Below the pieces are notes generated by a model. The model was not told the DNA's origin, did not search any database, and worked only from the letters and a program-made list of their open reading frames with translations. Of a DNA stretch of 64,000 nucleotides, positions 3,489-64,000 are shown one piece after another. The position numbers were made by a program, and so were the translations under genes. Origin of the DNA: an uncultured bacterium. Its GTDB lineage: Bacteria; Babelota; Babeliae; Babelales; RVW-14. Position 1 is the first letter of the stretch. Each line of letters opens with the position of its first letter. Location: assembly GCA_963759805.1 (NCBI GenBank), contig CAVXAT010000008.1, positions 1 through 64,000 on the forward strand, in the 5' to 3' direction.

Positions 3489-3752
3489 ATGCGAGTTCGG
3501 TAACTCTAAAATTAAAGCGCAATGGATTGTGCAGTGTTTTGGTAATACTGTGTCATGCTGAACTAGTTTCAGCATCCATGGATAAATTTATTCCAAATTT
3601 TTGTAATTGAGCAATAGGAGCAACTAATCCATGGATCCCAGCCGTCGCTAAAGCTATGGCGGGCAGGCCTGAAATAAATTCAGGATGACAGACCTCTGGT
3701 CAGAAGCTACTTTTAACATCCACAGCCCTTTTACTAATTATCGAACTTGCGT
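3489..3752. mobile_element. MITE-like element A: IS982-like terminal inverted repeats, 7-bp target duplication TAATCTA, nested palindromic core
   Basis: Left end ATGCGAGTTCGGTAA, right end TTATCGAACTTGCGT; TAATCTA at 3482-3488 and 3753-3759; core TGTCATGCTGAAC...TTCAGGATGACA at 3551-3690 with a 31-nt hairpin insert at 3637-3667. Confidence 0.75.
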
Positions 3753-11349: not shown

Positions 11350-12448
11350 CCTTCTCCCGAAACCCAACAAATCCCCCAAGCCCGCTCGTGGTGAGCTTGT
11401 CGAACCATCGACCGTCTTGTCCGTCGTAGCTCGAAGAGCGAAGTCGGAAGGGCGACGGACAAAGTTTCTGATTTTCACAAATTTGAGATATCTGTTTTTT
11501 TGCTTTGCATGTTTTATTGCTTTGAGTAATCACAGTCCATTATTAGCACAAGATACTGGTGAAAATATAGCTTCTATACCGAAAAAAATGGGCACTGACG
11601 AGTTTAAGGCGCTTGTAGAAAATATTTATGATCTTCTCCTCCAAGGACATTCGGCCGATGATATTGTAAAAATACTTGAGACTGAAAAAGCGGGCCCATA
11701 CAATATTAAAAAACTTGTAGCACACATTTATGATCTTTTAAATAAACAAAATTCACAGAATACAATCATAAACATTATTGTGAATAATAATGGATCTAAA
11801 GAATATCGCGCTCGAACAAATTTTTTAAACATTTTAACAAATCCAGCAACTTTTTACCTTGCATTAAAAATCATTGCCATCATTCTCGCTGTTATAGTTA
11901 CTTGTTACGTATTGGCACGATACTTTTCCGGAAAATCCGGTTTTTTCAATGGGGCACCACAACCTAAAAATAGGTGCTCTGTCAAAAATCTTAGTAAAAA
12001 ATCTAATGATTATGAATTGTCTAATCCGGATATCTTGCCTTTCGACAATGCGCCTCAATTAATTGAAAAACAAGAAATGCATGGACATGAAATTTCAGTG
12101 CAAGCTGCACCAAAAACACTGCCTGGAACGCATCCAACAAGTCAAAGCTGTGCGCCTGCGAGTGAGAAAACAGGTCCAGCAATAATACAAAATCAACAGT
12201 CCCCATCAGTAATTTGTATTAAAAAGATTGCGGTTAATGATGAATTAATGGAAGAAGCAAATAGAATGGTTGAATGTGCAATAAGCTTATGCCCCAATTT
12301 TGTAAAACCACCGCATGTAGATATACGAGGCATGCGTACTATCGGAGAGGCTGCCGCTAAAGAACCAATCGACACCCGAAAGCTCAGTGAAATAATAGAC
12401 GAAAGCATTAGTGAATTCAACAGATTGGGTGAACAACTTAGAAAATGA
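11336..12448 (+). CDS. Hypothetical secreted/membrane protein with a palindromic-element-derived N-terminal insert
   Basis: ATG 11336 with GGAG RBS; hydrophobic signal-like stretch and one TM helix; no recognised domain. Confidence 0.6.
   Translation: MLFISLLPKPNKSPKPARGELVEPSTVLSVVARRAKSEGRRTKFLIFTNLRYLFFCFACFIALSNHSPLLAQDTGENIASIPKKMGTDEFKALVENIYDLLLQGHSADDIVKILETEKAGPYNIKKLVAHIYDLLNKQNSQNTIINIIVNNNGSKEYRARTNFLNILTNPATFYLALKIIAIILAVIVTCYVLARYFSGKSGFFNGAPQPKNRCSVKNLSKKSNDYELSNPDILPFDNAPQLIEKQEMHGHEISVQAAPKTLPGTHPTSQSCAPASEKTGPAIIQNQQSPSVICIKKIAVNDELMEEANRMVECAISLCPNFVKPPHVDIRGMRTIGEAAAKEPIDTRKLSEIIDESISEFNRLGEQLRK
11348..11464. repeat. Palindromic element copy in the 5' end of the 11336 ORF
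   Basis: 11383-11408 is the exact reverse complement of 19141-19166 in gpmI; followed by a TTGTCCGTCG...CGACGGACAA hairpin. Confidence 0.8.
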
Positions 12449-18455: not shown

Positions 18456-20237
18456 ATGAATAACAAAGACAAACACCCCCCAATAATGCTTGTAATCCTT
18501 GATGGCTTTGGATATAACCCTAATTCATCCGGCAACGCCGTGGCACACGCCAAAATGCCGTTCTGGACCTGGCTGATACAAAATTACCCCCACACATTAC
18601 TGCGTGCGGCAGGGGAAGATGCCGGATTACTCCCGGGGTATATCGGCAACTCAGAAGTTGGACACCTAACAATCGGGGCAGGACGTATTGTTGAATCCGT
18701 TCTTAAAAAATTTCATGATGAAATTATTAGCGGCAAGTTTTTTGAAAATAAAATGTTAATAAATAATTTTAATAAGTTAAGAGAAACAAATAAAGCCCTA
18801 CATATAATTGGCTTACTATCAGATGGAGGCGTACACAGCCATGAATCCCATCTTTATGCCTTTTTAAAATTGGCAAAAACTATTGGGATAAAAAAGGTCT
18901 TTGTTCATGCAATTCTTGACGGACGCGACGTGGCCCCCAAAAGTGCTGCCACTTACCTTAGTCGACTAGAAAATGAGTGTAAAAATTTAGGCTGTGGCAA
19001 AATTGCAAGCATCGGCGGAAGATTTTATGCCATGGACCGAGATGGGAATTGGGACAGAACCAAACAGTTCTATGATATGCTGGTTGGAGCAACCACACAG
19101 AATAGACTTTTTGGGGAACCTGGCGCGTCACCCAAGGGTGATGGTTCGACAAGCTCACCACGAGCGCGCCTACTTAATGGCGTTCGTCCTGCTATGCCCG
19201 GCGTAGCCACGAAGGGCGAAGCCTGGGAGCCTGTCGAAGGATGCGAGTGTCAGACGAGATCTAATGAACAAGCAAACAAATCAATTGTAAACCAAACCTG
19301 GGAAACTCTTCTTGAACACGAATATAAATCCGGAAGAACCGACGAATTCGTAACCCCTATACTTATTCAACCCGAAGGCTTTGTTAAGCAGGGCGATGGC
19401 GTAGTTTTTTTCAACTTCCGCCCCGACCGCGCACGTCAACTCACGGAAAGCTTTATCAACCCAAATTTCAATAAATTCCCAACTCAAAATTTATGCAGCA
19501 CAAATCATGAACTTGCATTCTTCATAACTACCACACGTTATAACGAAGATTTTGCAAAATTTAATAATGACGTTTTGTTTGAGCGTGAAAAAATCGCAAA
19601 CACACTTCTGGACATATTTTCCCAACAAAAAAATCCCCGAGATGAATCTCGAAAAGTATTTATAGTTGCCGAAACCGAAAAATATGCCCACGTAACATAC
19701 TTTTTTCACGGCATGCAAGATTACCAAGCGCCAAACGAAACAAGGGTATTAATCTCATCAATAAAAACCCAAAACTATATAAATTATCCTGAAATGTGCG
19801 CAAACGATATAACAACCACCGTTTTGAACTCTTTAAAAACATATCCTGCTGATTTTTATCTGATTAATTATGCCAATGCCGACATGGTTGGACACTCCGG
19901 AGACTTTGACGCAACGGTTAAGGCGTGTGAGTGCCTGGACAAACAACTTGAGCAACTGTACAAAGTTTTTGTTGAAAAAATGGATGAAACAATGTTTATC
20001 ACCGCCGACCACGGCAATGCCGAGGAAAAAATAGATCCAATAACCGGCACCCCACTTACGGCACACACAAAAAACCCGGTCCCATTTATTTTTGTAAATA
20101 AAGGCATGCAGGGCAAGCAAGACACGAGCTGGCCAACCGAACCCAAATTTGGCCTATCAAATATTGCACCAACAATACTAAATTTTATGGAGTTAAACAT
20201 CCCCAAAGAAATGGTAAAACAAAAAATAGAATTTTAA
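18456..20237 (+). CDS. gpmI: 2,3-bisphosphoglycerate-independent phosphoglycerate mutase carrying a 53-aa in-frame insert
   Basis: ILDGFG, GNSEVGH, SDGGVHSH, DGRD, YAMDRD, NFRPDRARQ, ETEKYAHVT, DMVGH, ADHGN all intact. Confidence 0.96.
   Translation: MNNKDKHPPIMLVILDGFGYNPNSSGNAVAHAKMPFWTWLIQNYPHTLLRAAGEDAGLLPGYIGNSEVGHLTIGAGRIVESVLKKFHDEIISGKFFENKMLINNFNKLRETNKALHIIGLLSDGGVHSHESHLYAFLKLAKTIGIKKVFVHAILDGRDVAPKSAATYLSRLENECKNLGCGKIASIGGRFYAMDRDGNWDRTKQFYDMLVGATTQNRLFGEPGASPKGDGSTSSPRARLLNGVRPAMPGVATKGEAWEPVEGCECQTRSNEQANKSIVNQTWETLLEHEYKSGRTDEFVTPILIQPEGFVKQGDGVVFFNFRPDRARQLTESFINPNFNKFPTQNLCSTNHELAFFITTTRYNEDFAKFNNDVLFEREKIANTLLDIFSQQKNPRDESRKVFIVAETEKYAHVTYFFHGMQDYQAPNETRVLISSIKTQNYINYPEMCANDITTTVLNSLKTYPADFYLINYANADMVGHSGDFDATVKACECLDKQLEQLYKVFVEKMDETMFITADHGNAEEKIDPITGTPLTAHTKNPVPFIFVNKGMQGKQDTSWPTEPKFGLSNIAPTILNFMELNIPKEMVKQKIEF
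19104..19262 (+). mobile_element. In-frame palindromic element (RPE-like) inside gpmI
   Basis: 159 nt = 53 codons; AGA...TCT ends flanked by AAT on both sides; homologous to the insert in fcl. Confidence 0.85.
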
Positions 20238-24489: not shown

Positions 24490-26115
24490 GTGAGTCAATT
24501 AAGTAAATTTTTTAGAATTAGGCTGTTTATAATAGCGTTCACTTTATCCTGCGGTGCCTGCTTGTGTCCTATGGGCATCAAATCCATGCACCCTATGGAT
24601 TTACAAAATCCACTCGAAGATCTATATGATAAAACTTTTTTGGAAACAATAACGTTTGATAGCTGGTTCCATACACAACAACATCCCACAACGCTTCTGA
24701 GAATACTAAAATTATTCAACAACACACAGGCTGAATATTTAAGAAACAACGAGCTTTGGGCAAAACAGCATACAGATGGACATTGGGTAAATCAAGCGCC
24801 AGTTGAGATAATAGATGACTTAATGTCTGGCAGTATTAAAATAAACATGGAAGACTCTTCACCCCCACCATTTTTGCCATTTCTTGCCAAATGCATAATA
24901 CCACAAGGTATGTTTGTAATTGACATCGGGGATTTACATGGAAACTTTGAAGCTAGTGAAGCAATTCTTAAAAAAATGCGTGTACGTAACATGCTTAAAC
25001 CCTCTATGGAGCTAGATGAACGAATTAAATTAGTCTTTCTTGGCGATTACATGGATAGAGGCCCACAGTCGTTAAAGGTACTTGCAACTGCAGCTCTTCT
25101 TAGTTTAAAAAATCCTGGACAAGTTATTATGCTCAGAGGAAATCATGAGAATATTGCTTTCAACCTAGCCCCAAACAATTACCCTCACAATATTGCTTTC
25201 GAAATCAATGCAATGGGTACAACGCAGGAAACCACTTGCGCAATTATAGAAGAACTTTCAAAATTGTACGAAATTCTCCCAGTTGGGGCATTCATTGGAT
25301 ACCAAGAATCAGTCAAGCCTACAGAATTCTTTTTCCATGTTCATGGATGTATCGATATAAGAATATCTTGTAAAGGTTTTTTAGAATATTACGCAAGAAA
25401 TTTATCTCAAAATTGTGGAACAAAATTCTGGAAACTTGAATTTGAAAACATCATGACTCCAATGAACTTAATTGATTATTATGCCGATATAATTCCAGAC
25501 ATTCAAACTACAATATCTAATTTTTCTCAAGCATGGTTAAATCCAAATCCGGCATTTGGATTTTTGTGGAATGACGTATCCCTACAAACACAATGTCCTT
25601 TATTTGCAGGGGACAGAGGGGAAGATGTAATAAGCCTGAATCCTTATATAATTAAAAAATACTTCGAAAAAAACAACTCAGATAATGTAAAAATCTGTGG
25701 AATAATAAGAGCACATCAACATCACCTACCTAAAATTAGGCATGCCGTACTATCTGCAAATAAATCCAAAAGTCCTGTAGATTTAATAAATAGAGTAGAC
25801 AGTCCAAAGTTTTTTGATCATGCTCGTTATTTTACAAAAATTTGCCCTGAAATAAGTCCTGCCTGCTTAATGATATCCATTTCCCCGAACCACGAAGCTG
25901 ATTACAATGAAATTGGTGACGAAACTGATTACCCCTTTGCCTACAACTTTATTGAAGCCTCCACCAAAACAGGTATTGTTCTCAACCCTGATTTTTCCAT
26001 AATTACTTTAATGAGCGCTCCAATAATGCTTGAAAATAAAATAACAATGTCATACCCTCCAACATTTTTATTTTTGGGCCAACATAATGGTGGGAATATA
26101 GTAAGAGTTTATTAA
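24490..26115 (+). CDS. Secreted PPP-family (calcineurin-like) Ser/Thr phosphatase
   Basis: GDLHG, GDYMDRG, LRGNHE, HG, LWND, RAHQ; N-terminal hydrophobic signal. Confidence 0.85.
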   Translation: MSQLSKFFRIRLFIIAFTLSCGACLCPMGIKSMHPMDLQNPLEDLYDKTFLETITFDSWFHTQQHPTTLLRILKLFNNTQAEYLRNNELWAKQHTDGHWVNQAPVEIIDDLMSGSIKINMEDSSPPPFLPFLAKCIIPQGMFVIDIGDLHGNFEASEAILKKMRVRNMLKPSMELDERIKLVFLGDYMDRGPQSLKVLATAALLSLKNPGQVIMLRGNHENIAFNLAPNNYPHNIAFEINAMGTTQETTCAIIEELSKLYEILPVGAFIGYQESVKPTEFFFHVHGCIDIRISCKGFLEYYARNLSQNCGTKFWKLEFENIMTPMNLIDYYADIIPDIQTTISNFSQAWLNPNPAFGFLWNDVSLQTQCPLFAGDRGEDVISLNPYIIKKYFEKNNSDNVKICGIIRAHQHHLPKIRHAVLSANKSKSPVDLINRVDSPKFFDHARYFTKICPEISPACLMISISPNHEADYNEIGDETDYPFAYNFIEASTKTGIVLNPDFSIITLMSAPIMLENKITMSYPPTFLFLGQHNGGNIVRVY

Positions 26116-26145: not shown

Positions 26146-27627
26146 ATGAAAACAAATTTTAAACTATTCAGTTTGGTCTTTATTTTGCTCATTAGCACAG
26201 CAGCATATTCTATGGAATCAAGAAGTATATCCGAGCATATACAAATTCAAGCCTTTTTAAACGGTATAAATCTTGCAAACTGGCTTGATACCCCACAAAA
26301 TGCAGAGACCACGCTCAGAGTACTAAAAATATTTAATAATACAATGGCCGGATGGTTAAATAACAATGAAATTTGGATAAATCAGGCTCCCAACGAACTA
26401 AAGGAGATAAAAGATATAATATTCGGATTAAGATTAGGCGGAATCAAAGTTCCGTTACACCTTTCCCCTGAAGGATTTTCTCAGCATATTCCAAATATAC
26501 CCTATCTTGCGAAATGGATCATCCCACAGGACAATGATGTTATTACGATTGGGGATTTGCATGGGGATTTTGAAGCATTAAAAACAATTATTAAGTCAAT
26601 TCATATGGATAGCCATACCAAGATTGTATTTCTTGGGGATTTCATGGACCGTGGTTGTAGCTCATTAAAAGTATTTACCACAGCAGCGCTTATTGCCCTA
26701 AAATATCCCGGCCAAGTACTAATGCTCCGAGGAAATCATGAATACATCGATACCAATTTAGATACATACGGCCTAGAATCAGAAATTAGAGCAATTGGTG
26801 CATCAGATGAAACGGTATACGGTATCATAGATGAGCTCTCAAAATCTTATGATTTTCTTCCTGTTGGAGCATTTATTGGACAACAGGGCACACTACCAAC
26901 AAAATTCATCTTTCATGCACACGGCTGTGTTGATATAAGAATAAATTGCAAAGATCTTCTAGAATCAGATGCAAACAATTTGTCACAAAATGGCGGAATT
27001 AAATTATGGAAATTTGGACCTGAGAACATAATGACAGAACCTGAAAAACTAATTAGATTTTATAAAGATATTGTTCCAAATTTAGGTAATTTAATGAAGG
27101 ATCTTACGGAAGTTGCGCAAGCCCTAACAAATACAAATCCAATATCTGGCTTGCTGTGGAGTGATATATCTTGCTACTCGAAACATCTTTTATACAGAAG
27201 CGCACGCGGAGAAAATATAATCGATATAGATATCAATATGGTAAAAAAATATTTAGAAAATTATAACTCGGATAATGTGAAGGTTTGTGGAATGATCAGA
27301 GCACATCAACATAATTTTTCCAAAGAGATTTATAACTTTTTGCATGAAAATTCATCAAATCTGAAGCATGTTTGCAGAAAAATCACACCAGCCTGTCTTG
27401 TTACAGCTCCGGCACCCACCGGAAGCAGCGTTCTATTACTGGAAAATTGCAATCTGATAAAATTTAACAATAATTTTTGGGTAGCAACCTTGATAAGCGC
27501 ACCAATAATAGAAAACAAATATATACAAATATTATATCCGCCAACATTCTTACGCTTAAGGTTTAATCCATCCTCCGGTCAGCACGAAATTCAGGCCATT
27601 TTTAATACAGAATTATTGCAAAATTAA
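26146..27627 (+). CDS. Secreted PPP-family Ser/Thr phosphatase, tandem paralog
   Basis: GDLHG, GDFMDRG, LRGNHE, LWSD, RAHQ; signal peptide; co-linear with the upstream paralog. Confidence 0.85.
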   Translation: MKTNFKLFSLVFILLISTAAYSMESRSISEHIQIQAFLNGINLANWLDTPQNAETTLRVLKIFNNTMAGWLNNNEIWINQAPNELKEIKDIIFGLRLGGIKVPLHLSPEGFSQHIPNIPYLAKWIIPQDNDVITIGDLHGDFEALKTIIKSIHMDSHTKIVFLGDFMDRGCSSLKVFTTAALIALKYPGQVLMLRGNHEYIDTNLDTYGLESEIRAIGASDETVYGIIDELSKSYDFLPVGAFIGQQGTLPTKFIFHAHGCVDIRINCKDLLESDANNLSQNGGIKLWKFGPENIMTEPEKLIRFYKDIVPNLGNLMKDLTEVAQALTNTNPISGLLWSDISCYSKHLLYRSARGENIIDIDINMVKKYLENYNSDNVKVCGMIRAHQHNFSKEIYNFLHENSSNLKHVCRKITPACLVTAPAPTGSSVLLLENCNLIKFNNNFWVATLISAPIIENKYIQILYPPTFLRLRFNPSSGQHEIQAIFNTELLQN

Positions 27628-41348: not shown

Positions 41349-43136
41349 ATGTACACTTCAAACAATTATAATTTAAAATACTATGCAATAATATTTGGCA
41401 TTTGCATATTAGCTTTTATTATTCCATGCAAAACAAGGCATTTCACAGGAGAATCTTATTCATCAGTGTACGGCATAATTAACATTGAAAAAACTTACGG
41501 GCTTGATAGTATCAGAAATTTTAAAAAATTTATAACCTGCGATTTAGTTCCATATCTACGAGGGAATACTACAAATGTTCCTGTGCAACATGACAAAACT
41601 TCTTTCTTTGCTTGTTATCACCCTACGCCTTATTCCATACAGCAGGAAACTTCTTATTTTACTTATTATCGCCCAGCACTTTGTCTCACATATCTAATTG
41701 AATACAAATTATTTGGGCTAAATGCATATCTTTACTATTTACTTATCATCTTAATTCACATAATAAATTCATTTCTACTTTTTTATTTTCTAAAATTTTT
41801 ATTCAACGAATTAATTGCCTTAGCGTGCACACTGTTTTTTACTGTAAGTCCTACTTTATTCATATGGCTTGGAGAAATGTGTCGTCAACAAAACCCAATA
41901 GCACTTTTACTATTCCTACTTTCAGTTTTTTTGTTAAAGAGATTCTTAGAAGCAAAAACAAATTACATATATATTTTACCTGCAAGCATTCTATATCTTT
42001 TATGCATTTGCATAAGAGAAACATTTTTAATCACTCCATTTCTATTAATATTAGCAATTCCTCTTGTCCATTCGCAAAAACATATCCTTAAAAAATTATA
42101 CTTCATCCTTGCAGCTTTTATTACAATGGTATTTCTATATTGTATAATGCGATATATATGTTACCCCATAAAAATAAACTCAATAACTATGCCTATGGCA
42201 AATTATCTTGGTATTCTAAAAACAATACTATGCTTGATTCCAAATTATGTTATTAAATTTATTAAAGAATTATACCTAATTTTTGTATCACTGTTTTTCT
42301 ATCACGAATTTTATTTTCTTTGTAAGGCTCACGGCTTAGTTTTTATATATAAAATTATTAAAGATTCTTTATTTTTAGCGCTTGCGATATTATTTATTTT
42401 AAATAAACAGAAAAAAATGTTCTTTTATTTTATTACATGTTTTCTACTCGTTTCATGGCCTTTTTTTCTTATTCAAGCAATGCTATCCTTAAAGGTATGT
42501 TGTTTTTTTTATGAATCATTACCCTTTGCAGCAGCTGCACTTGGAACACTCTTGTTCTATAATGCGAATTCAGAAACAAAAATATTCAAAATACTCCTTT
42601 TTATATTCGCTTTGTTTTTTGTTATATCAAATACAACAGGAATGATGATTTATCAAAATCGCAAATCAAAGGAAGGTAAACAACTCGATTATGCAATTAA
42701 AAATTTGAAGGCTAATAATCATGAAATTCTGAAAGATAAAGTTTTTTTAATTACCAACGTGAAATATATATTTGGAGTGGCACAGGCCGTTCAGTTAAAT
42801 TTCATGGAAAGCAAGATGCCTAAAGCCGTTTTACAAAGTATCGATATATCAACATCAGATCATGACTTAACAAAATATTTAGATGCGATTTTTGACAAGG
42901 CAGATGGCTCAAAAATCATACTTAAAAGCAAAGCCCCTAATATCCTTTGGTTTGAAATACGTCAGCAGTTCAAATATAATGATCTAGAAAGTTGCATAGA
43001 AAAATTTGAAATAAATTCAAACTTTGAACAAAAAATTTACGAATTAACAATATTCCTAAAAAAGGATTTTAGAAGCACAAAACAAGCATTGCTAATTTGG
43101 GATGATGCCTGCAATAAATTTCATGTTATAGTGTAA
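41349..43136 (+). CDS. GT-C-like polytopic membrane protein (intact paralog)
   Basis: YYRPA, EYKLFGLNAY, RET, YESLPF, IWDD..NKF; close paralog of 52303..54015. Confidence 0.75.
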   Translation: MYTSNNYNLKYYAIIFGICILAFIIPCKTRHFTGESYSSVYGIINIEKTYGLDSIRNFKKFITCDLVPYLRGNTTNVPVQHDKTSFFACYHPTPYSIQQETSYFTYYRPALCLTYLIEYKLFGLNAYLYYLLIILIHIINSFLLFYFLKFLFNELIALACTLFFTVSPTLFIWLGEMCRQQNPIALLLFLLSVFLLKRFLEAKTNYIYILPASILYLLCICIRETFLITPFLLILAIPLVHSQKHILKKLYFILAAFITMVFLYCIMRYICYPIKINSITMPMANYLGILKTILCLIPNYVIKFIKELYLIFVSLFFYHEFYFLCKAHGLVFIYKIIKDSLFLALAILFILNKQKKMFFYFITCFLLVSWPFFLIQAMLSLKVCCFFYESLPFAAAALGTLLFYNANSETKIFKILLFIFALFFVISNTTGMMIYQNRKSKEGKQLDYAIKNLKANNHEILKDKVFLITNVKYIFGVAQAVQLNFMESKMPKAVLQSIDISTSDHDLTKYLDAIFDKADGSKIILKSKAPNILWFEIRQQFKYNDLESCIEKFEINSNFEQKIYELTIFLKKDFRSTKQALLIWDDACNKFHVIV

Positions 43137-45345: not shown

Positions 45346-45362
45346 ATTAATATCTCCTAGCT

Positions 45363-45397
45363 TGTCATCCTGAATTTATTTCAGGATCCATGGATTA
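45363..45397 (-). repeat. Solo half of the palindromic core, in the empty state
   Basis: TGTCATCCTGAATTTATTTCAGGATCCATGGATTA is the reverse complement of the right arm of elements A and C without the 31-nt insert. Confidence 0.85.
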
Positions 45398-45419
45398 AAT
45401 AAGTTCCTTAAAAAAAGTT

Positions 45420-52302: not shown

Positions 52303-54015
52303 ATGTCTGTTTTTAAAAAATATGAAGTATTATATCCCTACATAATAATCCTATGCATAGGCATTTTGGCATTTATCATTCCATGTAAAACGTGGAACTT
52401 TGTAGGAGAATCCTATCCATCAATTTACGGCATTACTAATATCAAAAATTTGAACACTTTTATAACCGGTAACATCCTGGAAAACATGAATAGCAATACA
52501 GTAAACGTTTCAATTCAACCTAAAAATCTTACATTTTTCAATTCAATTTATCGTCCCGCGCTTTTGCTTACATATCTCATTGAATACAAACTATTTGGGA
52601 TAAATGCGTATCTTTATTATTTATTAATAATCTTGATTCATATTCTAAACTCTTTCTTACTTTTTTATTTGTTAACAAATTTGTTCAGTGGGATAGTCGC
52701 TCTATTTTGTACACTGTTTTTTACCATAAACCCCTCCCAATTCCTATCGATTGGAGAAGTATGTCGCCACCAAAACCAACTCTCACTGTTATTTTTTCTA
52801 CTTTCTATGCTCTTATTTAAAAAATTTTTAGAATCAAAAACAAATTTATTAGTTACTTTACCCGCAGGCATTTTGTATCTTTTATGTATATTGATGAGGG
52901 AAACATTTCTCGTCGCACCGTTTTTGGTAGTACTGGCAATCCCACTGGTTTATAAGCACAAGTTCACACTCAAAAAAATATTATTTATTCTTTCAATGTT
53001 GCTTACAGCGATATTGATATATTTTATAATGCGACGAATAGGCTATCCGCTTGCAATAAACTCTTCACACAACCCTTTTATTTTTGGGGGAGAAATGCTT
53101 TATAGCATACCCAAATATATTATTTCGTTTGCAAAAGAACTGTACCTAATTTTTGTATCAATATTTTTTTATCATAAATTTTATTTCTTCTGTGAAGTGC
53201 ATAATCTGGTTTTTTTATATAAAATTATTAAAGATTCCTTAATTGTAGGCCTCATAATTTTGTTTATTTTAAATACACAAAAAAAATTATTTTTATATTT
53301 TTCCATCTGCTTTATTGCAGCTTCATGGCCATTTTTTGTTATAAAGGCACTGTCCTCAATGAATATCTTCTGTTATTTTTATGAATCTTTACCATTTGCA
53401 GCTGCTGCTCTTGGGACGCTTTTATACTATAATTCATACACAAAATCAAAACTATTTAAAATAATTTTTTATACAGCTTCTACTCTTTTCGTTGTATCCA
53501 ATACAGCAGGAATGATGATTTATCAACACAGGTGTTCTACGGCAGGAGAGAAATTTAAGAATGGAATCAAAAATTTAAAACTCGATAACAATGAAATTTT
53601 ACAAGATAAGGTATTTTTAATCACAAATGTAAAAAACATTTTAGGAAGTAGATTCGGAACTGCACACGCCTTTCAATTAAATTTCATGGAAAACAAAAAA
53701 CCAAAAGCCGTTTTACTCAGCCTTGATATATATTCATTAAATAACGATCTTACTCAATATTTGGATGTAAATTTTGATAATGATGGCTCAAAAATCACGC
53801 TCAAAAGCAAAAACACAGATTTACTTTGGTTTGAGATAAATAACCTGCAAGAAGAGGATTTAAATAGTTGCGTAGAAAAATTTGAGGCAAACATAAAATC
53901 CGAACAAAAAATATATGATTTAACGATCGTTTTAAAAAATGATTTTATAACCCAAAAGCAGGCGCTAATTATTTGGGATGACAATTGCAATAAATTTCAC
54001 GTTAAATCCAGATGA
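52303..54015 (+). CDS. GT-C-like polytopic membrane protein (intact paralog)
   Basis: IYRPA, EYKLFGINAY, RET, YESLPF, IWDD..NKF. Confidence 0.75.
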   Translation: MSVFKKYEVLYPYIIILCIGILAFIIPCKTWNFVGESYPSIYGITNIKNLNTFITGNILENMNSNTVNVSIQPKNLTFFNSIYRPALLLTYLIEYKLFGINAYLYYLLIILIHILNSFLLFYLLTNLFSGIVALFCTLFFTINPSQFLSIGEVCRHQNQLSLLFFLLSMLLFKKFLESKTNLLVTLPAGILYLLCILMRETFLVAPFLVVLAIPLVYKHKFTLKKILFILSMLLTAILIYFIMRRIGYPLAINSSHNPFIFGGEMLYSIPKYIISFAKELYLIFVSIFFYHKFYFFCEVHNLVFLYKIIKDSLIVGLIILFILNTQKKLFLYFSICFIAASWPFFVIKALSSMNIFCYFYESLPFAAAALGTLLYYNSYTKSKLFKIIFYTASTLFVVSNTAGMMIYQHRCSTAGEKFKNGIKNLKLDNNEILQDKVFLITNVKNILGSRFGTAHAFQLNFMENKKPKAVLLSLDIYSLNNDLTQYLDVNFDNDGSKITLKSKNTDLLWFEINNLQEEDLNSCVEKFEANIKSEQKIYDLTIVLKNDFITQKQALIIWDDNCNKFHVKSR

Positions 54016-54755: not shown

Positions 54756-55127
54756 ACGCCAGTTCGATAACTATTCGACAACTAATTATTTCTTAGATTT
54801 CTGTCCTGAATACTCTTTGGAGCGAAATTTTTCCGCCGTCAACCATGGCCAAAGACTGTGTCATGCTGAATTTATTTCAGCCCCGTCCGCCATAGCCACG
54901 AGTGCAACGAGGGCGACGGCTGGAATCCATGGATAAATTAAGTTCATAATATTTTTTATATGAATTTTACTAATCCATGGATCCTGAAACGAGTTCAGGA
55001 TGACAAACTAGACTGATGAAAGCAATCTAACGCTTCAAACAGTTGCAAAATAAATTCAGGATGACAAAGTATTCCAAAGCTCATACAATGCACATGTAAG
55101 CCAATTTCAAAGTCATCGAGTTTGCGT
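54756..55127. mobile_element. MITE-like element B with nested palindromic core
   Basis: ACGCCAGTTCGATAAC ... GTCATCGAGTTTGCGT; core 54859-55005 with a 43-nt hairpin insert at 54882-54924; extra half-arm at 55048-55066. Confidence 0.7.
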
Positions 55128-58260: not shown

Positions 58261-58654
58261 ACGCCAGTTCGAGAATTAGTTACGGCTTTATTTTTGCTCT
58301 AAATGTTCTTTGTTAAGCATTTTTGCCGTGCACGCCGTAGCATTTCAAATGCGAAGGCTGTGTCATGCTGCCGTGCCCGCCGAAGCGGCGAGCTATCCTT
58401 CGCCCAGGTGGCTACGGAGGCCGGCGCGAAGGCTGGGAACTCGTTTCAGCATCCATGGATAAATTTATTCCAAATTTCTGCAATTGGGCAATAGGAGCAA
58501 CTAATCCATGGATTCCAGCCGTCGCCAAGGCTATGGCGGACAGGCCTGAAATAAATTCAGGATGACACCGTTCTCACTCGAGGCTTCTGTGGGAACAGCA
58601 AAAAACATCTTTCAGTAGCTGTTTCCAGTGAGTATCGAGTTATCGAGTTCGCGT
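58261..58654. mobile_element. MITE-like element C with multiply nested palindromic core
   Basis: TAATCTA|ACGCCAGTTCGAGAA ... TTATCGAGTTCGCGT|TATCTA; core 58361-58567 nearly identical to A, with inserts at 58371-58437 and 58514-58544; another hairpin at 58326-58360. Confidence 0.75.
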
Positions 58655-61290: not shown

Positions 61291-62364
61291 TCAGGGTTGT
61301 CCCGTTATGCTCTCATTCCATATATTATTCTTAATATTATTTTTCGATTTTGAAAATGACCGGTCTTTATCGGGAAATAGATCCTGTACCATTTGCTGCA
61401 TCTGTTCAATGGACAGCCATTCTTTGTTGTTGCCACTATGATACTCAAAATCATCTATAACAGGAGTCCCACAAACTTTGTGTTTGGATACGCTACCTAA
61501 GCCAAATGACGGCTTAACAACATAATGCGTCTCAAATTCTTCTGTGTTTCGTGCATCTTCGCGCGTAATCATAACTTCATGAATTTTTTCACCGGGACGA
61601 ATCCCTACCTCTACCATTTTCATATCCGGCGCCATGGCTTGCGCCAAGTCAATCATGCGCATCGACGGAATTTTTTTAACAAAAAGCTCACCACCTTGCA
61701 TAATATCAAGAGCCATTAAAACCATATCCACCGCCTGTTCAAGCCTTAGCCAAAAACGAGTCATCCTGAAATCTGTAATTGGAAGCTCTTTTGCCCCCTT
61801 ATCTATTAAATCTTTAAAATATGGAATTACAGAACCACGGCTACCTGCCACATTTCCATATCTGACAACGCTGAAACGCGTATCATGAGAGCCAACGTAA
61901 ACATTACCGGATATAAAAAGCTTGTCCGAACAAAGTTTTGTCGCTCCATACAAATTTACAGGGGCACATGCTTTGTCTGTGCTTAAGGCAACAACCCTTT
62001 TAACATTACGATCAATAGCAGCATCAATAACATTTTGAGCCCCAATAATATTAGTTTTTACAGCTTCAAATGGATTGTATTCACATGATGGAACTTGTTT
62101 TAATGCCGCAGCATGAATTACAACATCAACGCCATCAAACGCGCGAATGAGCCGATCTTTGTCACGAACATCACCAACAAAAAACCGCAATCGTGAATTA
62201 TCTTTAAACTCTGGCATGTTTGACATTTCAAACTGCTTGAACTCATCGCGAGAAAGAACAGCAATTCTTTGCACCTCAGGATGTTTTTGTAAAATTGTTT
62301 TTATAAAAGCTTTACCGAATGATCCGGTCCCGCCTGTGACAAGAATCGATTTGTATTTTAACAT
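61291..62364 (-). CDS. pseB: UDP-N-acetylglucosamine 4,6-dehydratase (inverting)
   Basis: TGGTGSFG, SRDE.KQ, HAAALKQVP, STDKA, YGATK, RYGNV.GSRGSV, MTRFW, GIRPGEK. Confidence 0.95.
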   Translation of the reverse strand: MLKYKSILVTGGTGSFGKAFIKTILQKHPEVQRIAVLSRDEFKQFEMSNMPEFKDNSRLRFFVGDVRDKDRLIRAFDGVDVVIHAAALKQVPSCEYNPFEAVKTNIIGAQNVIDAAIDRNVKRVVALSTDKACAPVNLYGATKLCSDKLFISGNVYVGSHDTRFSVVRYGNVAGSRGSVIPYFKDLIDKGAKELPITDFRMTRFWLRLEQAVDMVLMALDIMQGGELFVKKIPSMRMIDLAQAMAPDMKMVEVGIRPGEKIHEVMITREDARNTEEFETHYVVKPSFGLGSVSKHKVCGTPVIDDFEYHSGNNKEWLSIEQMQQMVQDLFPDKDRSFSKSKNNIKNNIWNESITGQP

Positions 62365-63659
62365 GATATCATACTCCCCTTCTCTCGCAGTAATATCTGC
62401 TGGTAACTATCACAATACCATTCGTAAGTTTTTTTTATTCCGGATTCAAGTGGAGTTTGTACCCTCCATCCTAATTTTGAAATTCTGTTTACATCCAGCA
62501 ACTTGCGAGGCGTTCCATCTGAACTGGCATGATCAAATTTAATATCACCATCAAACCCAACAATGTTTTTTATTAATTGTGCAAGCTCAGAAATTTTTAA
62601 ATCAGTGCCAACCCCAATGTTAATACACTCGCCAAGATCTTTAAAATCATAGTTATTAATTAAAAGAATCAAGGCTAGCCCCAGATCATCTACATGTAGG
62701 AATTCTCGATACACAGCACCTGTTCCCCACAACACCAAAGCCTCTGGAGTAATACCAAATTTTGCAAGCAACTCTGTTATTTCAGAATCACTAAAAATTT
62801 CAATAGATCTCTTCTGTAACTCGCATCCTTCGACAGGCTCCCAGCCTTCGCCCTTCGTGGCTACGCCGGGCACGGCAGGACGATCCTTCGACAGGCTCCC
62901 AGCCTTCGCTTGGGATAGCTTCGGCGGGCACGGCAGGATGAGCGGCCTGCTTGCCTGGGCGCCGTAGCTATCCAAGCGAAGGCGGCTCGAACCATCACCC
63001 TTGGGTGACGCGCCGGGTTGGGGCAACCCAAATTTTTCAAAATCAGATCTAATACTTGAAAAATCTTTGGCTGCAAGCAACTTGGCCAAATGAAATTTTC
63101 TAATCATAGCAGGTAGAACATGCGCAGTTTCAAGATTAAAATTATCATTTTGGCCATAAAGATTTGTGGGCATTACTGAGATAAAATTTGTTCCATACTG
63201 TTCATTAAAATATCTGCAAAGCTTGAGTGCAGAAATTTTTGCAATGGCATACGCCTCGTTTGTCGGCTCTAACAACCCGGAAAGCAGATACTCTTCTTTA
63301 AGAGGCTGTGGTGCGTTTTTGGGGTAAATGCATGATGACCCTAGGTTAAGTAACTTTTTAACGCCAAACTTATGAGAGGCATGAATGACGTTGGCCGATA
63401 TCATTAAATTATCATAAATAAAATCAGCCTTTTGCGTACTGTTTGCCCAAATTCCACCAACTTTTGCTGCAGCTAAGAAAACATATTCAGGACGATTTTC
63501 TTGAAAGAAAGCTTCAACTTGAGCCTGTGATCTCAGATCAAGATCTTGAAAATCTTTTGTAACAATATTTTTATATCCGTGTTTTTTTAAAGCTCTTAAA
63601 ACTGCAGATCCAACTAGACCGGTATGCCCTGCTACATAAATTTTAGAATCAACCTGCAT
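62358..63659 (-). CDS. fcl: GDP-L-fucose synthase carrying an in-frame palindromic insert
   Basis: AGHTGLVGSA, AAAKVGGI, LGSSCIYP, YAIAK, MPTNLYG, HVLPA, WGTG..YREFLHVDD, DGTPRK. Confidence 0.95.
   Translation of the reverse strand: MQVDSKIYVAGHTGLVGSAVLRALKKHGYKNIVTKDFQDLDLRSQAQVEAFFQENRPEYVFLAAAKVGGIWANSTQKADFIYDNLMISANVIHASHKFGVKKLLNLGSSCIYPKNAPQPLKEEYLLSGLLEPTNEAYAIAKISALKLCRYFNEQYGTNFISVMPTNLYGQNDNFNLETAHVLPAMIRKFHLAKLLAAKDFSSIRSDFEKFGLPQPGASPKGDGSSRLRLDSYGAQASRPLILPCPPKLSQAKAGSLSKDRPAVPGVATKGEGWEPVEGCELQKRSIEIFSDSEITELLAKFGITPEALVLWGTGAVYREFLHVDDLGLALILLINNYDFKDLGECINIGVGTDLKISELAQLIKNIVGFDGDIKFDHASSDGTPRKLLDVNRISKLGWRVQTPLESGIKKTYEWYCDSYQQILLREKGSMISC
62805..63050 (-). mobile_element. 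In-frame palindromic element (RPE-like) inside fcl
   Basis: 246 nt = 82 codons, bounded by AGATCT at both ends with AAT outside each; homologous to the gpmI insert; the gene-upstream boundary could be up to ~10 codons further in. Confidence 0.8.
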
Positions 63660-63673
63660 TAACAAGTGCCTTT

Positions 63674-64000
63674 CTACAAATAAGCTTCTTTTAGGCCCTG
63701 GTGCCAAGTAACAGTATGAGATGTGTATAAAAAGTTTTTACTTTTGCAAATATCCATGCCCTGACCAATGGGAGTAAGTCCGGCAAATTTTAGATCATAA
63801 TCAACCATAATTTTTACAAGCTCATCAAATGTCACACGTGGAGACCAGCATAAAATGTCTTTTGCTTTGGAAATATCTGCTTGAAGATGCTCCACCTCAG
63901 TTGGACGAAAATATCTAGGGTCAACTTCAATAATGACATCACCTGGCTTTAAAATACCGAACCAAATTGAGCTTAAATTTTTAATAATTCCGATCTCCTC
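63674..64000 (-). CDS. gmd: GDP-mannose 4,6-dehydratase, 3' part (runs off the window)
   Basis: [17 protein letters not shown]...L.W.P...F.ELV..MV..D. Confidence 0.9.

Follow-up and report, generated by a model that had tools for sequence, protein, structure and literature searches.

The Rickettsia palindromic elements (RPEs), as described in the MITE review PMC10969869, are short palindromic repeats which are dispersed in a reduced intracellular genome, where they lie in frame in many unrelated housekeeping genes and encode a conserved peptide at positions that are compatible with the protein fold. In-frame palindromic repeats in coding genes have long been known, from Rickettsia. A second group to which the element described here can be likened is that of the TA-targeting MITEs derived from IS630/Tc1-mariner, of which we take the Correia elements of Neisseria and the RUP elements of pneumococci to be examples. 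The MITE features used for comparison below are those given in PMC10969869. In the literature that was found, there is no description of such repeats in Dependentiae, and repeat terms have no occurrences in the Dependentiae genome papers found.

The locus considered here lies in a window (the whole stretch of DNA that was analysed, 64,000 nt in length) from a genome, G000, which is a draft of 1.50 Mb in 21 contigs, with 35-40% GC. Within the window, the gene for GDP-L-fucose synthase (fcl) contains an in-frame segment which is probably one of many dispersed copies of a palindromic repeat. The repeat is GC-rich and modular, ends in terminal inverted repeats and is likely a non-autonomous mobile element; the segment in fcl is predicted to form a disordered surface loop of 72 residues (coordinates of this and other features are given in Table 1). 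Copies of the element would land at many sites, and those within genes would persist only where the element is read in its stop-free frame and the loop into which it falls is tolerant. The copy in fcl has probably been remodelled since, by the gain, loss or exchange of whole hairpin modules, and this remodelling is likely to have proceeded via recombination with other copies rather than by simple tandem duplication.

In Pfam, Fcl matches the Epimerase family (SDR; 1e-57), with the match split into two stretches. Solved GDP-L-fucose synthases from the PDB match with E values of 5e-103 to 1e-92 and align with residues 1-208 and 290-417, leaving about 81 residues between the aligned blocks without a match. 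The list of open reading frames shows that the frame of fcl is open throughout the repeat segment, just as the preliminary description of this DNA had stated. The frame directly upstream of fcl, which runs off the end of the window, is presumably gmd (GDP-mannose 4,6-dehydratase), as judged by eye from its sequence.

The insert has 64.8% GC, compared with 36.4% for the remainder of fcl, and its left edge is placed with an uncertainty of about 3 nt. The preliminary description had bounded the element by two AGATCT hexamers, giving it a length of 246 nt (82 codons). Both hexamers are present (62805-62810 and 63045-63050), but only the downstream one is part of the element, namely of its right terminal repeat, whereas the upstream one corresponds to the native Arg-Ser codons of the motif IRSD, and the true insert is about 216 nt (72 codons). 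The suspicion that IRSDFEKFGL might be native was well founded: since IRSDFEKFGLP is kept in same-genus orthologs without the insert, it is host sequence. In a search of 40 related genomes, fcl orthologs were found in three genomes of the same genus (G001, G002 and G003). The net size of the insert is +198 nt relative to the gene in G003 and +234 nt relative to that in G001. The left terminal repeat of the fcl copy is eroded, with a loss of 6 nt compared with the copy in G002.

Table 1. Coordinates in the window of the host genes, the repeat copies and their parts.
Feature	Position	Strand	Description and basis
fcl (GDP-L-fucose synthase), coding sequence	62358..63659	-	433 aa with the insert, stop codon counted; list of open reading frames, Pfam, PDB matches
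In-frame repeat insert in fcl	~62805..63020	-	216 nt, 72 codons, QPGASPKG...CELQKRS; ortholog DNA and protein alignments, GC, pLDDT
Right terminal inverted repeat of the element	62805..62820	-	AGATCTCTTCTGTAAC on the + strand; scan for terminal inverted repeats, copy alignment, comparison with G002
Two adjacent 58-nt units	62825-62882 and 62883-62940	-	83% identical; each a 22-nt hairpin unit with a 36-nt core
36-nt nested core, 'C' subtype	62898..62933	-	Discrete module, missing from otherwise similar copies; pairs with an upstream block in a long hairpin
41-nt block (approximate coordinates)	62948..62988	-	In the G000 insert but absent from that of G002; supplies the second arm of the long hairpin (pairwise alignment, RNA fold)
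Native fcl codons RSDFEKFGLP, outside the element	63021..63050	-	IRSDFNKFGLP in insert-free G003; IRSD in G001
ORF directly upstream of fcl, 3' part	63674..64000	-	Open-ended, running off the end of the window
gpmI (2,3-bisphosphoglycerate-independent phosphoglycerate mutase)	18456..20237	+	593 aa with the insert; list of open reading frames; Pfam iPGM_N (two stretches) and Metalloenzyme
Element copy in gpmI	19103..19263	+	Adds 159 nt = 53 codons; both terminal repeats; TA at both ends

The fcl copy comprises two loaded hairpin units, which differ in the subtype of their cores, and a 41-nt block that pairs with one of the cores. The two units had been described as an internal duplication with a period of 58 nt. 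They are real, and similar to one another, but are better read as adjacent 22-nt hairpin units that carry 36-nt cores of different subtypes. A period of 58 nt is not divisible by three, and translation therefore reads each unit in a frame of its own (...AGSLSKD and ...GWEPVEG). The copy in alaS has the same layout as that in fcl, minus one 36-nt core, and a metagenome contig joins position 62897 to position 62934, thereby skipping the core. Because the core is absent from the one and skipped in the other, nesting of modules, with exchange between copies, accounts for the tandem pattern better than a local duplication does. Folded as RNA, the fcl insert has a minimum free energy of -102.3 kcal/mol (z -3.5). 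Five of its six frames contain stop codons, and the same is true of the copy in gpmI.

Inteins, introns and translational bypass were considered as other kinds of intervening sequence and rejected, as the frame is unbroken, the length of the insert is insufficient and there is no family match; for an intein in particular, Pfam shows only SDR-type families in Fcl, and the inserted 72 aa are predicted to be disordered.

A query with the locus found five DNA runs, with only 5-6% of the sampled words, and no RNA run. Four DNA runs were assembled, and none of their contigs spanned the junctions of the insert, the coverage being limited to repeat modules or diverged pieces of fcl from relatives. A repeat wrongly collapsed into fcl during assembly might be suspected where no read set spanning the junctions has been found and the genome is a draft of 21 contigs. 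Such an artefact is nevertheless extremely improbable, as the reading frame is kept, a separate genome (G002) has an insert at the same site, and at least 10 other genes contain in-frame copies.

The insert in fcl had been noticed by its likeness to a second peptide in the window, in GpmI, in the same orientation and frame relative to the gene, and this likeness holds. The two copies match one another as inverted repeats, over 85 nt at 92% and over 33 nt at 97%, and since the two genes are on opposite strands, each copy is oriented and read alike with respect to its own host gene. A 25-mer from the fcl insert has three occurrences in the window, two of them in fcl and the third in gpmI, compared with none in 100 shuffles. 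The minimum free energy of the gpmI insert, folded as RNA, is -65.5 (z -2.4). The gpmI copy sits in an indel-rich region and is missing from the gpmI of all five relatives examined (G001, G002, G003, G007 and G015); as both of its ends are also intact, it looks young. What did not stand was the restriction to two unrelated enzymes sharing a peptide, as 18 copies were found in G000, of which 16 are in long open frames.

In BLAST searches with the fcl and gpmI inserts, dispersed copies are found on at least 10 contigs of G000. An alignment of 19 copies, together with a scan for terminal inverted repeats, shows that the copies have common ends, TAGACTTCTTCTGAAAC...GTTTCAGAAGAGATCTA, which form terminal inverted repeats of about 16 nt, and that a variable set of GC-rich hairpin modules lies between them. 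In the short form (about 100 nt), the 22-nt hairpin near the right end is bare, and in the longer forms the 36-nt core is nested in the loop of this hairpin. The 18 copies counted here are those which keep the right-end 21-mer with no more than three mismatches. Sixteen of these 18 are held in stop-free frames of at least 100 aa, in a single orientation and a single frame, which reads EPVEGCE. The frame in use is open in 16 of the 18 copies and is the sole open frame in nine. One reverse frame is also open in six of the 18, and is never the frame in use; thus, a filter against stop codons accounts for much of the orientation bias, but not clearly for all of it.

The 18 copies were sorted by Pfam and by inspection. 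About 11 lie within a protein (alaS, mnmA, prs, tamB, gpmI, fcl, mevalonate kinase, a YfiH-like fragment, an unknown 499-aa protein, a small secreted protein and a bridge between a histidine phosphatase and lptC), two make up the C-terminal ends of an ABC-F ATPase and a DUF167 protein, three are at or upstream of likely starts (M24 peptidase, murJ and UDG), and two are non-coding. In the bridging case (C5:100123-101628; L093), a stop-free frame of 501 aa comprises a histidine-phosphatase domain (residues 17-183), the repeat and an LptC domain (residues 316-488). Here, the element may have replaced a stop codon and spacer, and lptC seems to keep its own start. Where the repeat forms a C-terminal tail, in the ABC-F ATPase (C1:255726-257549) and the DUF167 protein (C5:2565-3014), a stop codon follows within a few codons. 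About 1 kb from the copy upstream of UDG there is a tandem array (C19:8661-9115) of seven units with a period of 69 nt, which, by BLAST, contains one module of the element.

There are other repeats in the window. Further GC-rich repeat families or module fragments lie at 3560-3690 / 58437-58567, 54855-55073, 45357-45416, 11380-11409 (an inverted copy of the GGTTCGACAAGCTCACCACGAG module) and 58363-58391, and one of these is a pair of 131 nt with 94% identity. Two gene-sized segments about 10.9 kb apart (41666-43128 and 52548-54004) are 73-74% identical, a level of similarity which suggests a pair of paralogous genes, and a similar pair, at 72-81%, lies at 25069-25722 and 26662-27312.

The site in fcl can be compared among the genomes of the genus. 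In G002, fcl contains a shorter insert whose junctions are those seen in G000, and neither insert disrupts the frame. In G003, fcl has no insert and reads IRSDFNKFGLPQ-SCCSNV-EILSDFE, and in G001 the gene, which also has no insert, is even shorter than in G003. The inserts in G000 and G002 differ by whole modules, of 41 and 58 nt, with a net difference of 81 nt. The earlier claim that the element keeps evolving inside the gene is therefore borne out to the extent that it has changed while inside fcl with the frame kept; its modules, however, are not drifting freely, being more conserved than the silent sites of the host. Over 117 alignable columns, the two inserts are 90.6% identical, whereas the flanking parts of fcl are 79% identical overall and 63% identical at third codon positions.

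Because G002 shares with G000 both junctions of the insert and a private variant of the right repeat (TTACAG, common to the two fcl inserts and present in none of the 17 other copies in G000), one ancestral insertion in fcl is favoured, and the ancestor shared with G002 is likely to have carried an fcl copy already. A rather unlikely alternative, against which the shared junctions and the TTACAG variant both speak, is that G000 and G002 gained their inserts independently and recently at a preferred target site, with no single old insertion remodelled in place. It would account for the excess of identity of the insert DNA over the flanking third codon positions, and it agrees with the 36-nt core of the G002 fcl copy, which differs by only 1 of 36 nt from that of an unrelated copy in G000 (C11:72329), compared with 3 of 36 nt from the core of the G000 fcl copy. 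It also agrees with the distances between the host genes: G000, G002 and G003 are roughly equidistant (dS 1.2, 0.88 and 0.80) and G003 is empty at this site, so that orthology of the two inserts needs either a loss in G003 or a different tree. To judge from the alignments, identity of 90.6% would not be expected for an old orthologous insert that evolves neutrally. Possible sources of the similarity between the two inserts are constraint at the level of DNA that acts on the hairpins, repeated targeting of the site, and concerted evolution in which other copies take part. In filled-versus-empty comparisons for fcl, gpmI and mevalonate kinase, any target duplication is blurred by indels in the relatives.

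The insert lies between PDB-aligned residues 208 and 290, in a segment that is variable among relatives, and Fcl from E. coli lacks the whole of the segment (200-307) which hosts it. In a model made by AlphaFold2 with a 12-sequence alignment (mean pLDDT 71.8), residues 215-284 have pLDDT values below 50, of about 25, and no predicted secondary structure, with confident helices on either side. These predictions support the view that the insert is a tolerated loop in Fcl, which is predicted to be translated. The flanking parts of fcl have dN/dS values of 0.089 relative to G002 and 0.151 relative to G003. The host gene is under purifying selection, and on this point the preliminary description was right. 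Residues S108, C110, Y137, K141 and H180 are invariant in all 12 orthologs; these correspond to the catalytic positions of E. coli Fcl.

G000 has a second fcl, an intact 349-aa ORF without an insert at C2:118188-119237, which adjoins a second gmd (382 aa); in this pair (C2:118188-120413) the key motifs are intact. Both products have hydrophobic N-terminal segments, and in the surrounding region (C2:117132-121441; locus L099:1133-5441) the pair is flanked by ORFs that resemble glycosyltransferases. With fcl as the query, no paralog of the C2 type was among the matches listed for G001, G002 and G003. The C2 pair could in principle cover the function of the insert-bearing fcl. The preliminary description had named an inactive protein together with a second intact fcl as grounds for giving up its reading, and of these the second intact gene was found, whereas the insert-bearing copy shows no sign of inactivation. 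It is quite improbable that the insert-bearing fcl is decaying or neofunctionalised, with GDP-fucose being made via the insert-free paralog, for which the second fcl-gmd pair with its intact motifs would provide the means: dN/dS of the flanks is low (0.09-0.15), including between the two insert-bearing orthologs, the frame is open, the catalytic positions are invariant, the gene stands directly downstream of the frame read as gmd, and no C2-type paralog is listed for the insert-bearing G002. Redundancy from the C2 gene could, on the other hand, have eased the fixation of frame-breaking intermediates during remodelling, as neither the 41-nt nor the 58-nt block keeps the frame by itself and the two do so only when taken together.

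It may also be asked whether the peptide itself has been selected as a functional module, such as an interaction or localisation loop, rather than being a tolerated passenger. In its favour, all 16 genic copies are read in the same peptide frame and the sequence is conserved above the neutral level. Across the 42 insert codons shared by G000 and G002, dN/dS is about 0.96 (a noisy value from so few codons), and the region is predicted to be disordered. Moreover, the conservation extends to non-coding copies and to the bare core in other phyla, which points to constraint at the level of DNA, and the peptide matches only five of 1.84 billion cluster representatives. A selected module is, on this balance, very improbable, and the tolerated passenger is the preferred reading.

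The count of five comes from a search with the 53-aa peptide of gpmI (E values no greater than 1e-3); three of the five matches are G000's own proteins, and one is a leucine-rich-repeat protein from another organism. Since clustering at 50% identity hides members that bear the insert, the protein search is a weak measure of spread. At the level of DNA, the full element is found at 28 places in G000 and at 16 in G002, and at none in G001 or G003, and of 24 further genomes from this family, 12 contain sub-modules. A 21-nt hairpin core, GAGCCTGTCGAAGGATGCGAG, is identical in 67 loci (L018-L084) of a collection of species-representative genomes. The record titles of these loci name about ten bacterial groups or phyla, including Latescibacterota, Dehalococcoidia, Gemmatimonadota, Acidobacteria, Planctomycetota, Anaerolineae, Novosphingobium and Marinobacter. 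Outside the Babeliales, the 21-nt core is a bare hairpin, often within other repeat contexts. In Dehalococcoidia it occurs in tandem arrays with a period of about 99 nt, and in Latescibacterota in a repeat about 170 nt long whose flanks are conserved (e.g. L026 and L049). Rfam holds no matching family; the best match, to a miRNA model, scores 23.8 bits against a cut-off of 87 and is taken as a chance palindrome.

The modules are near-constant (90.6% identity between the fcl inserts compared with about 63% at silent sites, and the 21-nt core in 67 loci), while entire modules are gained and lost, in frame, within essential genes. For this reason, a wider reading can be put forward tentatively, as a possibility that is itself doubtful: rather than a one-off relic insertion, the fcl copy might reflect an active, cross-phylum system that mobilises or copies hairpins, for which the reading frames of housekeeping enzymes would be safe havens and by which new protein loops would be built.

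Candidate genes for mobility were sought in G000. No partner transposase with matching terminal repeats was found in this assembly, which is 88.7% complete. A search for DDE_3 (IS630-type) transposases found only a 71-aa remnant (C12:2588-2800), and there was no matching repeat on contig C12. Matches to Y1_Tnp comprise four that are full-length and one that is weaker and partial. The four are apparently intact genes for Y1 (IS200-type) transposases (C4:113564-113923, C11:76599-76958, C8:141891-142247 and C14:18809-19165), two of which have identical scores. Six motifs of the element, allowing up to two mismatches, had no occurrence within about 1.5 kb on each side of the four full-length loci (L110-L113). 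A search for GIY-YIG genes found five small ORFs in addition to uvrC; scanned to about 1.5 kb, the flanks of four of these contained none of the six motifs, and the fifth, on C5, has a copy of the element about 1 kb away.

The element can be compared with three kinds of known repeat. The REP, BIME and REPIN sequences, which are associated with Y1 transposases of the IS200/RAYT type (cf. PMC3733652), resemble it in having GC-rich hairpin units that occur single, nested or as mosaics, and G000 encodes Y1_Tnp. They differ from it in two respects: no motif of the element lies near the four scanned Y1 genes, and REPs usually lie outside genes, in contrast to the present copies, most of which are inside genes and in frame. 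In common with the MITEs derived from IS630/Tc1-mariner, the element is 100-250 nt long, has terminal inverted repeats of about 16 nt, is likely non-autonomous and has many copies. TA is found at both ends in six of the eight copies for which both ends are recognisable, as read by eye, and might reflect a target-site duplication; the empty sites in fcl, gpmI and mevalonate kinase lie in indel-rich regions. The point of difference from these MITEs is the partner transposase with matching ends, in place of which only the DDE_3 remnant was found.

The closest functional match is to the RPEs. As with the RPEs in PMC10969869, this element is short, dispersed and hairpin-forming, and lies in frame in many unrelated housekeeping genes with a shared peptide. 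The insert in fcl likewise occupies a fold-tolerant position (a variable segment, with pLDDT of about 25). There are also differences: the host belongs to the Babeliales/Dependentiae rather than to Rickettsia; the element stands out by its high GC content from the AT-rich genome around it, and its terminal inverted repeats are clear; and it is nested and modular, being built from small hairpin units, one of which has a 21-nt core that is unchanged in many other phyla. The element thus resembles the RPEs in function and is not filed as one of them, the likeness being one of description, apart from any sequence comparison with RPE-1 to RPE-10.

The GC-rich islands matter for annotation too, since they make proteins longer and genes in genome bins of Dependentiae can be fused or extended by them. 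Having filled, differently filled and empty versions of one site in sister genomes makes it possible to study directly how a repeat comes to be tolerated, how it is remodelled and how it becomes protein sequence. The present analysis contributes these three states of an orthologous site, the remodelling by whole modules, the conservation of the insert above the level of silent sites, the family-wide tally of a single frame, and the second fcl. With Rickettsia as the first, the element can be seen as a second, independent instance in nature of "selfish DNA inside protein-coding genes", from another phylum of intracellular bacteria with reduced genomes.
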